A stretch of 64,000 nucleotides of DNA from Acidobacteria bacterium RIFCSPLOWO2_02_FULL_67_21 (GTDB taxonomy: Bacteria; Acidobacteriota; Vicinamibacteria; Vicinamibacterales; UBA2999): contig MEKU01000007.1 in assembly GCA_001767195.1 (NCBI GenBank), forward strand, positions 53,488-117,487. The letters run 5' to 3'. The position numbers and the translations under genes are program-made. The notes under the pieces are model-generated. The model was not told the DNA's origin and ran no database searches. It worked only from the letters and a program-made list of their open reading frames with translations. Below, one piece after another: positions 7,313-62,707 of the stretch (its first letter is position 1; every line of letters begins with the position of its first letter).

Positions 7313-8527
7313 TCAGCTCTCCTCGATCGCGGGCGCCGACTCCGCCGGCGGATTCCGCTCGACCATCAGCCGGCGCACGATCACCGCCAGCACGACCAGC
7401 AGCACCAGGCCGGCGACGAAGACGGCGCGGATGCTGCGCGCGCCGACCAGGCCGCTCAGCACGGGGCTGATCGCTACGCCGATGAGCGAGGCGCCGGTCA
7501 GAAACCCGAATGCGGTGGCGTGCACCTCCTGTGGAATCACGGCCCCGCCGGCCGTATAGGCCGTCGTGATCGACGTGCCGATGCACAGCCCGGCCACGGC
7601 CATCGCACACGCCATCAACCACATCGCCGACGCCATGGTCAGGACGCCCAGCGCGCCGGCCGCCACCAGTACCGCCCACGCGATGATCGCGCGGGGCGAG
7701 TGCCGCCTGAGCAGTCGGTTGGACAGCTGGTTGCCAAGCGCGCCGGTGAACGCGAGCACGGAGAACAGGATGCCTGCCACCAGCGGTACGTCTTCCTGCG
7801 CGTAGCCGATCTCGCCGAGGTGCAGCGGCAGGATCGGGCCGAAGCTGCGGTCGACCAGCTGCAGCGCAAACAGCAGCACCATGATGAGCAGAAAGTTCTC
7901 GAACGCCAGGATCGACGCGAACGGCAGCCGGCGCCGGCCGCCGGGCGCCTGGGGCTGCCGCGGCGGCTCCCTGTAGAGGACGGTCACGAGCACGAAGGCC
8001 GCCGCGTAAAAGCCGGCCGCCACGAAGAAGGCATTGCGGAGGCCCACAGCCGGCGCCAGCACGCCGCCGATCACCGGGCCGAGTGCCGGCCCCATGCGCT
8101 GAGCGGTCTGCACCGTCCCGATGGCCGCCGCCATCTTGTCGCGCGGCGCCGACCGGGCGGCCATCGACAGCGTCAGCGGCCCGTACCCGGCGAAAAACCC
8201 CTGGATGGCACGGAGCGCGAACAGGTGCCAGGCCTTCGTGACGTAGGCCATGGCGGTCATGACGACGATGAAGCTGATGAGCGAGCGCTGGACGAGCAGC
8301 TTGCTGCCGAAGCGGTCCCCCACCCGCCCCCAGAGCGGCGCCGTCAGCGCGGCAATGGCCGGCGACACGCCGAGCGTGGCGCCCGTCCAGAGCGCGATCT
8401 CACCGATATCGCTGACGCCCAGCTGCCGGATGTAGAGCGGAAGAAACGGCATCACGAGCGTGAAGCCGGTAAAGCCGACGAAGGCGGCCGCCGTGATGGC
8501 TGCCTGATTGCGCTTCCAGGAATGCAC
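7313..8527 (-). CDS. MFS transporter
   Basis: 12-TM-like hydrophobic profile with MFS motifs (GRVGDRFGSK). Start set to GTG 8527 because the longer ORF would overlap glpX. Confidence 0.8.
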   Translation of the reverse strand: MHSWKRNQAAITAAAFVGFTGFTLVMPFLPLYIRQLGVSDIGEIALWTGATLGVSPAIAALTAPLWGRVGDRFGSKLLVQRSLISFIVVMTAMAYVTKAWHLFALRAIQGFFAGYGPLTLSMAARSAPRDKMAAAIGTVQTAQRMGPALGPVIGGVLAPAVGLRNAFFVAAGFYAAAFVLVTVLYREPPRQPQAPGGRRRLPFASILAFENFLLIMVLLFALQLVDRSFGPILPLHLGEIGYAQEDVPLVAGILFSVLAFTGALGNQLSNRLLRRHSPRAIIAWAVLVAAGALGVLTMASAMWLMACAMAVAGLCIGTSITTAYTAGGAVIPQEVHATAFGFLTGASLIGVAISPVLSGLVGARSIRAVFVAGLVLLVVLAVIVRRLMVERNPPAESAPAIEES

Positions 8528-8535
8528 CCGCGAGT

Positions 8536-9585
8536 TCAGAACCTGATCTTGACGTCCTTGGACGGATTGACCTGAATGCTGTCGATGAACCGGATCTGGT
8601 GCGGGTAGGTCTGCATGATGAGCGACGTGGTCCGCGTTCCTTCGCCGAAGAACCGCACCCCTCTCATGAGCGTTCCATCCGTCACGCCTGTGGCGGCAAA
8701 GATGATCCGCTCCCCCGACGCCAGATCCCGGGACCGGTAGACCTTCTTGATGTCCGTGATCCCCATCGCCCGGCACCGCTCTTCGTCCTCGGGCTTCCTG
8801 ATGACCAGCCTGGCGAAGATCTCGCCGTTCAGGCAGCGCATGGCCGCCGCCGTCAGCACGCCCTCGGGAGCGCCGCCGATGCCCATGACCGCATGCACCC
8901 CGCTGCCGACGACCGCGGCCGCAATCCCCGCCGAGAGATCGCCGTCGCTGATGAGCCGGATGCGGGCGCCCGTCGCACGGATCTCGTCGATGAGCGCCTC
9001 ATGCCGCGGCCGGTCGAGCACGATGACCACGAGGTCCTCGACCCTCCGGCCGAGCGCCTGGGCAATCGCGCGCAGGTTGAATCGGACGGGGGCGTCGAGG
9101 TCGACCACATCCTTCGAGCTCGGCCCGACCACGAGCTTCTCCATGTACAGGTCGGGCGCGTGCAGCAGGCCTCCTCGCTCCGACGCCGCAAGCACCGCGA
9201 TCGCGTTGGCGGCGCCGGTCGCGCACAGGTTCGTGCCCTCGAGCGGGTCGACCGCAATGTCGACCTGGGGAAACGAACGGCCGTTCGGCGCGCGGTGCGC
9301 CATGCCGACCTTCTCACCGATGTAGAGCATCGGCGCCTCGTCACGCTCACCCTCGCCGATCACAATCGTGCCGTCGATCGGCACGGAATCCATGACGCTC
9401 CGCATCGCCTCGACGGCCACCTGATCGGACTTGTGCCGATCGCCCTGTCCCATCGTCTGGGCGCAGGCGATCGCCGCCTGCTCGACGACCCGCAGGAAAT
9501 CGAGCGACAGATCGGAGTCCATGAACTTTTCGCTCGTCACGTCAGTCCCGGCGCCCGGCGAACCCGCCGTCCGCGTCAGCGTCAT
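8536..9585 (-). CDS. glpX: Class II fructose-1,6-bisphosphatase GlpX
   Basis: Strong GlpX similarity ([35 protein letters not shown]). Alternative start ATG 9522 (MDSDLSLDF). Confidence 0.9.
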
Positions 9586-18397: not shown

Positions 18398-19279
18398 GTG
18401 GCCGATCGAGCAGCTCGTCCGTCGGGTCCCGGCCGCGCCGAATCGCGGGAATCGGCTGAACTCAAGGCGCTGAAGGAGCATCATCCCGAACTGGGCGAAG
18501 CGATCGACATGCATCTCGAGCTGCTCGGGATGGAGCGGCGCATCCGGGGCCGGGTGCCACTGCCCTCCTTCGCGCTGAACGCCCAGGTCTTTGCACATCA
18601 CCGCGCGGACGGCCGTCCGCTGCTTCGGTTCGAGGATATCCCGCTCGACCCGACCGATCTGCGCCTCGCCGTTCGTCAGACGGCGGAGATTCTCCGCCGG
18701 TTCGGCGCGCTCGACGAGCCCGAGTTTCAGCAGGCCCTCGGGCTTGGCCGTGAGATGGCGCTGCCGTCCCTGGTGGCCGCCTGGTACCGCGCCATCGCGG
18801 AGCGGCACGAGGCGGCGGCCGTCGGACGGGGCTCGTCGACGGCGCCCGCCCTGGACGGCCGCTTCGACCAGATCTTCACGCTGGCCATGCGGCCCTTCCT
18901 GTCGCGATGCGCAGAGGTCGTGCAACAGCGCCCCGAGCTTGCCGCCTGGCAGCACCCGCACTGCGCCGTCTGCGGCGGCGAGCCCGACTTCGCGACCATC
19001 ACGCCGGCCGCCGAACGGCACCTGATCTGCGGCCGGTGCGGCCTCCGATGGAAGTTCGAGCCGCTGACCTGTCCGTACTGCCGGAACAGCGACCGATCGC
19101 AGATCACGTCGTTTGCGACGCCCGACGGGCGCTACCGCGTCTATGCCTGCGATGTGTGCACGCGGTATCTCAAGGCGTACGACGGCCGGCACGCTGCGCG
19201 TCCCGTCATGCCGGTTGTGGATATGGTGGCGACGCTGCCGCTCGACGCGGCGGCGATGCAGCGGGGCTATACAGGATAG
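18398..19279 (+). CDS. fdhE: FdhE-like formate dehydrogenase accessory protein
   Basis: Paired CxxC motifs (CAVCGG, CGRCG, CPYCRN, CDVCTRYLK) and the FdhE C-terminal pattern. GTG start. Confidence 0.65.
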   Translation: MADRAARPSGPGRAESRESAELKALKEHHPELGEAIDMHLELLGMERRIRGRVPLPSFALNAQVFAHHRADGRPLLRFEDIPLDPTDLRLAVRQTAEILRRFGALDEPEFQQALGLGREMALPSLVAAWYRAIAERHEAAAVGRGSSTAPALDGRFDQIFTLAMRPFLSRCAEVVQQRPELAAWQHPHCAVCGGEPDFATITPAAERHLICGRCGLRWKFEPLTCPYCRNSDRSQITSFATPDGRYRVYACDVCTRYLKAYDGRHAARPVMPVVDMVATLPLDAAAMQRGYTG

Positions 19280-61051: not shown

Positions 61052-61798
61052 TCAGCGATCAGGGCTGGGACTTGCCCCGCGGATCCATGGCTTCAGCTCG
61101 AAGATCAGCTCGCGGACAAACGGTTCAATCGTGTCCTGAAGCTCAAGCCCGTAGCCGCGGTATTGCCGTTCCTGCATCCCTTGAGGGCTGGCGTTCCGGA
61201 AGTTGTCACCAGAGACCAGAAAATAGTTCTGCCTGGGGGCGATGTGGATCGTGTAAATGCCACCGATCTCTCCCGAGTCGACGAGGACCACCTTGCACTC
61301 GAACTGCCACCCACTGAGCGGGAATGCGCCGGACTCCAATCGACCGGTCACCTTATCCTTCACGCGCGAGTACTGGTCGGTGTTGTAGGAACGTTCGGAG
61401 ATAGAAACGATTTCCAGAATCAACTGCGCGTTGACTTTTTCTTGAATCAGGCGATAGTCGAGATCCTGATTTGACCGCAGCACGGCCTCCAAGAGACCGC
61501 GGTCGCGAACGGTGAAACCGGCTTTGACGAGCTCCCGTTCGATGAGGTTGTACGCCTGATTCATTGCCGTATCACCCTGCGCCTTCTGCGCCTCCGTCAC
61601 TTGACTCTGCGGCGTTGGCACTCGCAGGACGATCGTCGGCGTCCCCACCGATCGCATGAAGGTCTGAAGTGACGGCTGGCTGACCGGCTCAGGACCTGGG
61701 ATCTCAGGGGGCGCCACGACAAGAGCCCAGCATCCGGAAACGGCCACGGCCATGCCCAAGAGACACACCAACGCCGTTCGTTGACGCATGCGCGACAA
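61052..61798 (-). CDS. Hypothetical lipoprotein in a lower-GC segment
   Basis: Lipobox AVAVSGC. The segment LIERELVKAGFTVRDRGLLEAVLRSNQ is reminiscent of CsgG/LpoB-type lipoproteins (weak). Confidence 0.55.
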   Translation of the reverse strand: MSRMRQRTALVCLLGMAVAVSGCWALVVAPPEIPGPEPVSQPSLQTFMRSVGTPTIVLRVPTPQSQVTEAQKAQGDTAMNQAYNLIERELVKAGFTVRDRGLLEAVLRSNQDLDYRLIQEKVNAQLILEIVSISERSYNTDQYSRVKDKVTGRLESGAFPLSGWQFECKVVLVDSGEIGGIYTIHIAPRQNYFLVSGDNFRNASPQGMQERQYRGYGLELQDTIEPFVRELIFELKPWIRGASPSPDR

Positions 61799-61834: not shown

Positions 61835-62336
61835 ACCGCGTACTCACCATACGTGCGATCGGCTCTCTGCGAGATCTTCCCGGAGGGCCGGGGGTTATCT
61901 CGGCTCCCCTGTACCGTATTGAGCGTGACCCTGCCGCCCCCTGCCCCAGCTGCTCGCCCGGACACACTGCAAGCCGGCTGTTGTCCCTCTTCGACCAGGA
62001 GAACGTGCTTTTGCGGCGCTTGAAGCCACGCTGCGCCTGTACCGCGAGTCGGCCTGCATCGCGCAGGACGTTCCGGCGCTCAACGCCCCTCACGCGATCG
62101 CTGGCGGCGATCGAAGACACGGCTCTATACCAACCAGGATCCTCGTCGTCGACCACGACTTCATGGGGGCGCACCGCATTGCGATGCGCTTCAGGCAGGC
62201 ACGGCCGCCCATTATCGGCCGCATCAAGGACGATTGGTTCGTCCTTGACGCGCGCACGATTTTCGATCCTCTGGATCTGGCCCGAATTGGTCTGAAGTAT
62301 TCGACGGCCCCTCGCCGATACTGCCCTGTGCTCTAG
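61835..62336 (+). pseudogene. selA: Relic of selA (L-seryl-tRNA(Sec) selenium transferase), 3' third only, with a frameshift and an internal deletion
   Basis: Frame-0 translation ...[15 protein letters not shown]...[15 protein letters not shown]...[35 protein letters not shown] matches my recollection of the SelA C-terminus ([23 protein letters not shown].LDLR). Upstream, in another frame, is SLRDLPGGPGVI (compare SGDKLLGGPQAGII). Confidence 0.6.
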
Positions 62337-62707
62337 GGCGACGTGCCGTCGCAGGCCTCGTTCTCGGTGACGAAGTCATCCGCGTGCGATGCATGTGCCA
62401 TGCAGGCCCCGACGCTCAGGTGCAGCAGCACGTGGGGTTTCCGCGAAGACCCCGTTGCATGGCACACCGCGACCTTGTCGCCGCTGGCGAAATAGAGGCA
62501 CTGCTCATCCGCCAACGACTGGCTGCCGCCCTCTACCGCACTCGACGCCGGGCTCAGGAGTCCGGTTGTGGGCGAAGAGGCCCTGGGGCCGCCGGCCACC
62601 GGACCGGCTTGCAGGAGAACGGCGACGACCGACACGATCGCGGCCAGGCCCCAAGCGGTTTGTCTCATCATCCTTCCTTTCGCGCCCGCGCTCCGGCGCG
62701 GACTCAC
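62333..62707 (-). CDS. Small secreted protein with a C-terminal CH.TGS....H....V...A...H..H motif
   Basis: Signal peptide (likely start ATG 62671, MMRQTAWGLAAIV...). VAVCHATGSSRKPHVLLHLSVGACMAHASHADDF. Confidence 0.5.
   Translation of the reverse strand: MSPRRSAGAKGRMMRQTAWGLAAIVSVVAVLLQAGPVAGGPRASSPTTGLLSPASSAVEGGSQSLADEQCLYFASGDKVAVCHATGSSRKPHVLLHLSVGACMAHASHADDFVTENEACDGTSP

Follow-up and report, generated by a model that had tools for sequence, protein, structure and literature searches.

A decayed SelA-like paralogue, very probably a pseudogene, in a Vicinamibacterales genome that encodes selenocysteine machinery

Introduction

The question raised by this locus is whether an unannotated selA-like fragment records the loss of selenocysteine (Sec) decoding. 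The fragment lies in a 64,000-nucleotide stretch of DNA, referred to here as the window (contig C7:53488-117487), from a metagenome-assembled bin of 4.19 Mb in 107 contigs (99.5% complete, 2.56% contamination). The host organisms considered in this study are Vicinamibacterales (Acidobacteriota) by source names. A first-pass annotation, made from the sequence, had taken the fragment for the 3' end of a selA gene and saw in it a hint that the lineage had lost selenocysteine-dependent formate dehydrogenase. SelA homologues outside Sec decoding are known, such as Helicobacter pylori HP1513 and others; these H. pylori-type homologues are N-terminally truncated and retain PLP (Cravedi et al., 2015, PMC4607533).

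Results

A startless open frame is homologous to SelA

Direct reading and three-frame translation showed a stop-free frame of 135 codons from position 61929 to a TAG codon at 62334-62336, and both the open frame and the translation quoted in the first-pass annotation proved exact on direct translation. The first ATG, GTG or TTG codon in this frame was found at 62163. The translated frame matched Pfam family PF03841 (SelA) with an E value of 2.8e-9 and 36.9 bits, passing the domain cut-off of 22.8 bits, and NCBIfam TIGR00474 with an E value of 2.1e-10 and 40 bits, missing by far the equivalog cut-off of 267.9. Passing the first cut-off and missing the second indicates a SelA homologue and not a functional equivalent. 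SelA chains of Aquifex and E. coli in the PDB (3w1i, 3w1h and 8uzw) were matched with E values of about 1e-7. When the window was searched with tblastn, the SelA of genome G014 and P0001, a metagenomic protein of 379 aa, gave E values of 2e-30 and 5e-39, respectively. Since the Pfam, TIGR00474 and PDB searches all matched SelA, the similarity that had been noticed in the letters is real homology, far beyond chance. P0001 was the closest relative in a library of 1.84 billion representative proteins, with 81% identity over the matched stretches.

Compared to bacterial SelA (L-seryl-tRNA(Sec) selenium transferase; E. coli 8UZW, A. aeolicus 3W1H), the relic is homologous in the C-terminal domain and in the first 28 codons, and it descends from this family. 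In contrast to bacterial SelA, it has no intact frame, core, PLP lysine or linkage to selB and selD. Approximately 400 bp are left, and an uninterrupted SelA frame of approximately 450-470 codons with a start codon is absent. Relatives carry selB, selD and tRNA-Sec in the neighbourhood; the neighbours of the relic are a lipoprotein gene and a gene for a 124-aa exported protein. The stretch from 61925 to 62326 is very probably a pseudogene, left by the decay of a paralogue that derived from SelA and stood alone, and not a remnant of the genome's working selenocysteine synthase.

The relic keeps both ends of the gene around two internal deletions

Each piece of the relic was located by frame against P0001, and the DNA was compared with that of an independently assembled metagenome contig, Ga0209343_10016051 (L056). 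With P0001 as query, tblastn found three collinear pieces in three frames, in which residues 14-28, 241-363 and 365-379 corresponded to 61966-62010, 62013-62279 and 62282-62326, respectively. The frame map resolved these into seven pieces, all on the plus strand. The first (61925-61936) consists of a GTG start and the codons VTLP, opposite VNLP in P0001 (residues 1-4). It is followed by a +1 frameshift, one base too many in a run of C (61937-61940), which was recognized by the change of phase and has the same bases in L056. The second piece (61941-61961) was assigned by translation, frame map and comparison with P0001 and reads LPQLLAR, opposite LPQILAR (residues 6-12). After one further extra base at 61962, a second +1 frameshift seen as a change of phase, the third piece (61963-62010) reads HTASRLLSLFDQENVL (residues 13-28) and is identical to P0001 at 12 of 15 positions over residues 14-28 (61966-62010). 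Codons 1-28 of the gene thus survive at 61925-62010, and 21 of the 28 are identical to P0001.

The tblastn segments stop at 62010 and resume at 62013. At this junction (62011-62012) residues 29-240 of P0001, 212 codons, are gone in an out-of-frame deletion of net ~634 bp that removed the whole catalytic core, including the position of the PLP lysine (E. coli K295, motif FSGDK). The fourth piece (62013-62087; AALEATL...ALNA, residues 241-265) was located by tblastn with the G014 SelA and P0001 and by the frame map. It ends at an extra C at 62088, the third small frameshift, which is absent from L056 in the DNA alignment; at this site the frame of L056 reads ALNALTRSLAAIEDTA and P0001 reads ALKTLTRSMASIEETA. 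The fifth piece (62089-62124; LTRSLAAIEDTA, residues 266-277), placed by the frame map, is out of frame within the long open frame of the window. A second deletion follows at 62125-62126, in which tblastn and the frame map showed the loss of residues 278-312 (35 codons, net ~103 bp); the sizes of both deletions were inferred from the protein coordinates of P0001 and are not exact to the base. The sixth piece (62127-62279; IPTRIL...DPLDL, residues 313-363) is the C-terminal domain matched by Pfam, TIGR00474, PDB and tblastn. It is nearly identical to P0001, and the 40 residues just before DPLDL are identical. A 1-bp deletion at the Val codon of the relatives (62280-62281) forms the fourth small frameshift, seen as a change of frame in tblastn and in the DNA alignment, where CTGGTGCCGAAC of the G014 selA stands opposite CTGG-CCCGAAT of the window. 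The seventh piece, located by tblastn (62282-62326), is the original C-terminal tail, PNWSEVFDGPSPILP (residues 365-379, 13 of 15 identical). P0001 ends opposite 62326, and the frame of the window has no stop codon following there.

These findings show that the relic keeps both gene ends, from the GTG at 61925 to the last matching codon at 62326, with damage amounting to four small frameshifts and two internal deletions, and the proposal of an unannotated, non-functional SelA-family remnant is borne out by the lesions as mapped against P0001. The reading of the relic as a 3' fragment was rejected, as tblastn with P0001 showed the retained 5' end. The first-pass annotation had placed the lipoprotein gene where the 5' two-thirds should be. 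That gene is a neighbour and does not replace the 5' part: the first 28 codons are still there, and the 212 that are missing were deleted from within the gene. Its estimate of about 50 residues missing from the middle was about right in size, with 35 codons actually deleted and a further 12 (62089-62124) present out of frame. A single in-frame deletion of 34 codons was rejected as the explanation of this gap, since L056 shows a +1 insertion and an out-of-frame deletion. The shift due to the extra C at 62088 is offset by that of the second deletion, so that the open frame of 135 codons exists by accident. The stretch SLRDLPGGPGVI (61862-61897), which had been taken for a remnant of the PLP-lysine region, lies upstream of the GTG at 61925, was not matched in tblastn by either SelA query and belongs to sequence not common to L056; the resemblance is due to chance. 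The deletion between 62010 and 62013 is where the true lysine region would fall.

An ATG-initiated frame of 57 aa (62163-62336, plus strand) lies within the relic and has been called as a gene elsewhere (P0002). The bases 5' of its ATG are GACCACGACTTC, without a Shine-Dalgarno-like sequence, and scans of the relic region for Rfam families, promoters and terminators gave no match. This small frame is most probably spurious, a product of the decayed reading frame.

The lesions are present in a sister strain

The relic is flanked by a divergent lipoprotein gene upstream (61052-61798, minus strand) and by a convergent gene for a 124-aa exported protein without a family match downstream (62333-62707, minus strand), which is identical in L056. 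The GC content of the lipoprotein gene was 0.56-0.58 compared to 0.67. It matched no Pfam family and had no homologue among 60 related genomes, so synteny could not be traced through it; it is probably a recent acquisition. P0001 was found on two short JGI metagenome contigs, where a minus-strand gene lies approximately 50 bp upstream of it and another minus-strand gene, of 118 aa, directly follows it, which is the arrangement seen in the window.

L056 equals the window from 61928, inside the start codon, through the downstream genes. The two share, base for base, the pair of large deletions and all but one of the four small frameshifts, and the differences were the absence of the C at 62088 from L056 and one substitution. 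The finding of the same lesions in an independent assembly shows that they are not assembly errors. The assembly of the bin does contain 219 runs of N, one of them interrupting the resident selA described below, and such faults might have broken a gene that is really intact. In the relic there are no Ns, and with its lesions repeated in L056 an artefact of assembly or scaffolding is next to inconceivable. Because one frameshift differs between two near-identical strains, the relic is now evolving neutrally.

The same comparison bears on whether the remnant still works, either as a small C-terminal-domain protein (the 57-aa frame, or one of 135 aa with a non-canonical start) or as a regulatory or antisense transcript. 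A stop-free frame of 135 codons is unusual at 65% GC, if far from impossible, the stretch that encodes the final 51 domain residues has hardly changed relative to P0001, and a gene caller did report the 57-aa frame (P0002). However, the long frame exists in the strain of the window only and is broken in L056 by the missing C; no start precedes 62163, and neither a Shine-Dalgarno-like sequence nor a promoter-like site was found. Moreover, the short relatives returned by the search of 1.84 billion proteins may be fragments encoded on short contigs, with no conserved mini-protein family demonstrated among them. A working remnant is thus judged very unlikely, and a pseudogene remains our reading of the locus.

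The left flank of L056 differs from that of the window, and an IS21-family element ends a few bases before the identity begins. This difference marks the relic locus as a strain-variable breakpoint. The element (L056 775-3296) encodes IstA of 526 aa and IstB of 253 aa and has matching multi-repeat terminal inverted repeats; no matching target duplication was found in its flanks. Beyond it lies a glycosyltransferase gene that is absent from the bin of the window. An IS21 copy 76-96% related to this element is present in the same genome as the relic, at C3:58911-60635.

The closest relatives are orphan SelA-like proteins without the PLP lysine

In P0001 the PLP lysine is replaced by leucine (SGDLLVGGPEAG), part of the core is gone, and the protein is approximately 80 residues shorter than full-length members of its group. 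A homology search seeded with a protein of genome G003 was followed by a tree of 131 SelA sequences (quick IQ-TREE search). The relic, for which only 28% of the columns were filled, and P0001 were recovered as sisters with an SH-aLRT value of 100. Both lay inside a clade of 19 rows (support 97) together with 16 orphans that lack the lysine, and the resident SelA of the bin branched elsewhere. The sequences treated here as Lys-less orphans are G003:C98:7932-9299, G066:C21, P0003, P0004, P0151-P0163, P0174 and P0001. Most of the orphan genes have uninterrupted open frames (P0004, at 363 aa, is a piece), and they stand alone, away from selB and selD. Two full-length members are annotated as selenocysteine synthase, one at 7932-9299 on the minus strand of L038 (G003:C98), with SGEAVVGG, and one at 4354-5730 of L044 (G066:C21), with SGDTVMGG.

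The position aligned with E. coli K295 was found to be A, T, G or E in nine of 10 sequences of the clade, with Ala in the G003 orphan, and the PLP aspartate is also missing. The canonically invariant EDLGSG, HTSNY, SRGELIEIGGAFR and HTNLGR motifs and the second Arg of HRxxR are all degenerate. These degenerate motifs were seen in the clade and in P0001; in the relic the core itself is deleted. In contrast to the core, the ends of the protein are conserved, with values for the first 75 residues and for the C-terminal domain of 0.72 and 0.77 within the orphan clade compared to 0.70 and 0.77 within canonical SelA, respectively.

G003 and G066 are two species of one genus that have the orphan at the same locus. 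Between these two copies dS was 1.35 and dN/dS was 0.14 overall; for the terminal domains it was 0.05-0.08 and for the core 0.35-0.48. A dN/dS of 0.14 indicates that the orphan is a maintained gene in this genus and not a pseudogene. The relic has neither the intact frame nor the purifying selection of the G003 and G066 orphans; it is disrupted, and one of its frameshifts is polymorphic between strains. P0001 is a further step down from the full-length orphans, and the copy in the window is the end point.

Canonical selA was found in 85 of the 121 genomes of the family. G066 also has canonical selA, selB and tRNA-Sec. In G003 no canonical selA, selB or tRNA-Sec was found, an absence that is not secure in a genome 94% complete with clustered sel genes. 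The orphans of G003 and G066 scored 345-377 bits, above the TIGR00474 cut-off, and databases name the orphans 'L-seryl-tRNA(Sec) selenium transferase'. Because G003 has an orphan without selB and tRNA-Sec, selA hits overcount the Sec trait in Vicinamibacterales. A full-text literature search returned no description of the Lys-less orphan clade, which is weak evidence of novelty.

Small exported proteins were observed beside several of these genes. A DUF6152-type protein (Pfam) is convergent to the orphan gene in the P0003 contigs (L058 3783-4163); a small exported protein that appears similar by eye is convergent to the G066 orphan (L044 5778-6158), and in G014 another one, also similar by eye, follows the canonical selA-selB-selD cluster at a distance of a few genes (L037 14717-15124). 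The occurrence of such a gene near both the orphan genes and the G014 sel cluster hints that the orphan loci may derive from a former sel locus.

Intact selenocysteine machinery is present in the same genome

The search for selB, selD and tRNA-Sec that the first-pass annotation had suggested was run, and it found an intact set in the bin, an outcome that the annotation itself had named as speaking against its reading. On contig C32, selA is directly followed by selB and then by selD. This resident selA scored 537.7 bits against TIGR00474 (cut-off 267.9), and its sole blemish is an assembly gap of 21 Ns. The selD gene (C32:49425-50447, minus strand) scored 376 bits and contains one in-frame TGA, in the N-terminal loop motif AG-U-AAK; SelD is thus itself a selenoprotein. 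A tRNA-Sec with anticodon TCA was found on C10 by both ARAGORN and Rfam (66.5 bits against RF01852). Strong tblastn matches of SelB and SelD queries occurred on C32 only. The composition of C7, C32 and C10 is typical of the bin, and it is on binning and composition that the placement of the relic and the selABD operon in one cell rests. To judge from these genes, the Sec machinery is complete and looks to be in working order, and the organism has not lost Sec decoding. Directly upstream of the C32 selA, reading of the sequence showed a small open reading frame that is putatively DUF3343-like.

The relic and the resident SelA were 50.5% identical over 91 shared C-terminal columns. Over the same columns, the relic was 68%, 65% and 64% identical to the SelA of G014, the SelA of G024 and the SelA-like protein of G003, respectively. 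The tail of the resident SelA reads VPHWPRDDDR, and that of the relic matches P0001 instead.

A reading of the relic as all that persists of the sole selA of the lineage, after the loss of Sec decoding and of Sec-dependent formate dehydrogenase, could appeal to the real SelA homology, to a genome without a match to FdnG-type Sec formate dehydrogenase and to an fdhE-like gene without an evident partner. Against this, selA-selB-selD and tRNA-Sec are intact, the SelD encoded there itself needs Sec, and the relic, at 50.5% identity to the resident SelA, groups with a separate paralogue clade. This account, the one drawn in the first-pass annotation, is highly improbable and is already refuted for the present bin, unless C32 and C10 come from another organism. 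A recent partial duplicate of the C32 selA, for example a by-product of recombination, had been offered as the alternative, and a full copy of the same gene family does exist in the same genome. However, the divergence is far too high (50.5%, compared to 81% for P0001 and 64-68% for the SelA of other genera), the relic has a start and a P0001-like tail of its own, and the tree places it elsewhere, all of which makes such a duplicate exceedingly unlikely.

The suggested link to formate dehydrogenase was not established. The 'FdhE-like' protein with four CxxC motifs (18398-19279, plus strand) scored 32 bits against an FdhE cut-off of 187.65 and may be a different zinc-ribbon protein. The genome had no FdnG-type formate dehydrogenase above the cut-off, and an in-frame TGA was absent from all six of its molybdopterin-enzyme hits; by sequence, the two best of these hits are tentatively read as NapA-like and assimilatory-nitrate-reductase-like. 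The formate dehydrogenase result says nothing on Sec loss.

Other SelA variants in the family

A further group of SelA variants, core-deleted, formed a clade of its own (clade C) with 15 clusters (L047-L050 (P0237), proteins P0238-P0268). Most members keep the lysine (P0254 does not) and both Arg residues of HRxxR, with the second Arg changed to Gln in three; SRGELIEIGGAFR is replaced, and the region around HTSNY is shorter by approximately 10 residues. The monocistronic gene lies between TonB-receptor genes and a spermine-synthase/TPR gene. A non-catalytic role was considered for clade C as well; as the one SelA hit in some genomes of genus g26 scores approximately 495 bits, clade C might be the working enzyme of these genomes.

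A second selA copy was observed in G062 (C18:33878-34971, minus strand; L045), in at least four frames and with one TGA, partly cut by the contig end. This copy lies upstream of the sole selB of G062, at a distance of approximately 3 kb, and the intact selA and tRNA-Sec of G062 were found at the end of another contig (C3). Part of this fragmented copy and a 'C-terminal fragment' in G008 were considered as relics and rejected, being cut by contig ends. A scan of the genome contigs with the relic's own peptide words gave nothing confirmable.

Discussion

The locus is an ordinary pseudogene that was spotted correctly and misread. The history that we infer, including a once-functional parent gene in the present lineage and the order of the lesions, would start from a gene of the P0001 type (379 aa) of the Vicinamibacterales orphan SelA-like clade, which would already have lost the PLP lysine and other core motifs and kept the N- and C-terminal domains. 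This paralogue would then have been inactivated by the two deletions (~634 and ~103 bp), the four single-base frameshifts and the loss of the stop codon. The relic now drifts neutrally, and the chance cancelling of the C at 62088 and the second deletion leaves the startless frame of 135 codons.

Among known SelA-like proteins, the relic is nearest to the Lys-less orphans by identity and by tree, and it has the same stand-alone context; the orphans are mostly intact, whereas the relic is dead. The H. pylori-type homologues and the Lys-less orphans are alike in that both have left the Sec pathway, lost the linkage to sel genes and evolved at an accelerated rate (PMC4607533). The orphan clade is the mirror image of the H. 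pylori type, with the N-terminal domain kept and the PLP site destroyed. Unlike the H. pylori type, an orphan can coexist with canonical SelA, as it does in G066 and formerly did in the genome of the window. The relic is not of the H. pylori type, since its first 28 N-terminal codons are kept and its lineage lost the lysine.

For annotation, the fragment should be entered as a pseudogene, with a SelA-like paralogue as its parent. What it records is that a spare, already non-catalytic paralogue was lost, and not selenocysteine use; for this genome, an inference that was tempting but wrong is thereby corrected. Of greater interest is a by-product of the analysis, the live family of Lys-less paralogues, a putative candidate for a tRNA-binding pseudoenzyme. 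It is possible, if doubtful, that these live relatives form a functional family of non-catalytic SelA pseudoenzymes. Such a protein could bind tRNA(Sec) or be a regulatory or scaffolding subunit co-assembled with canonical SelA decamers. Alternatively, as G003 appears to keep the orphan without selB and tRNA-Sec, its role may lie outside Sec decoding. If the pseudoenzyme reading is true, the window would show this family being discarded in one lineage.
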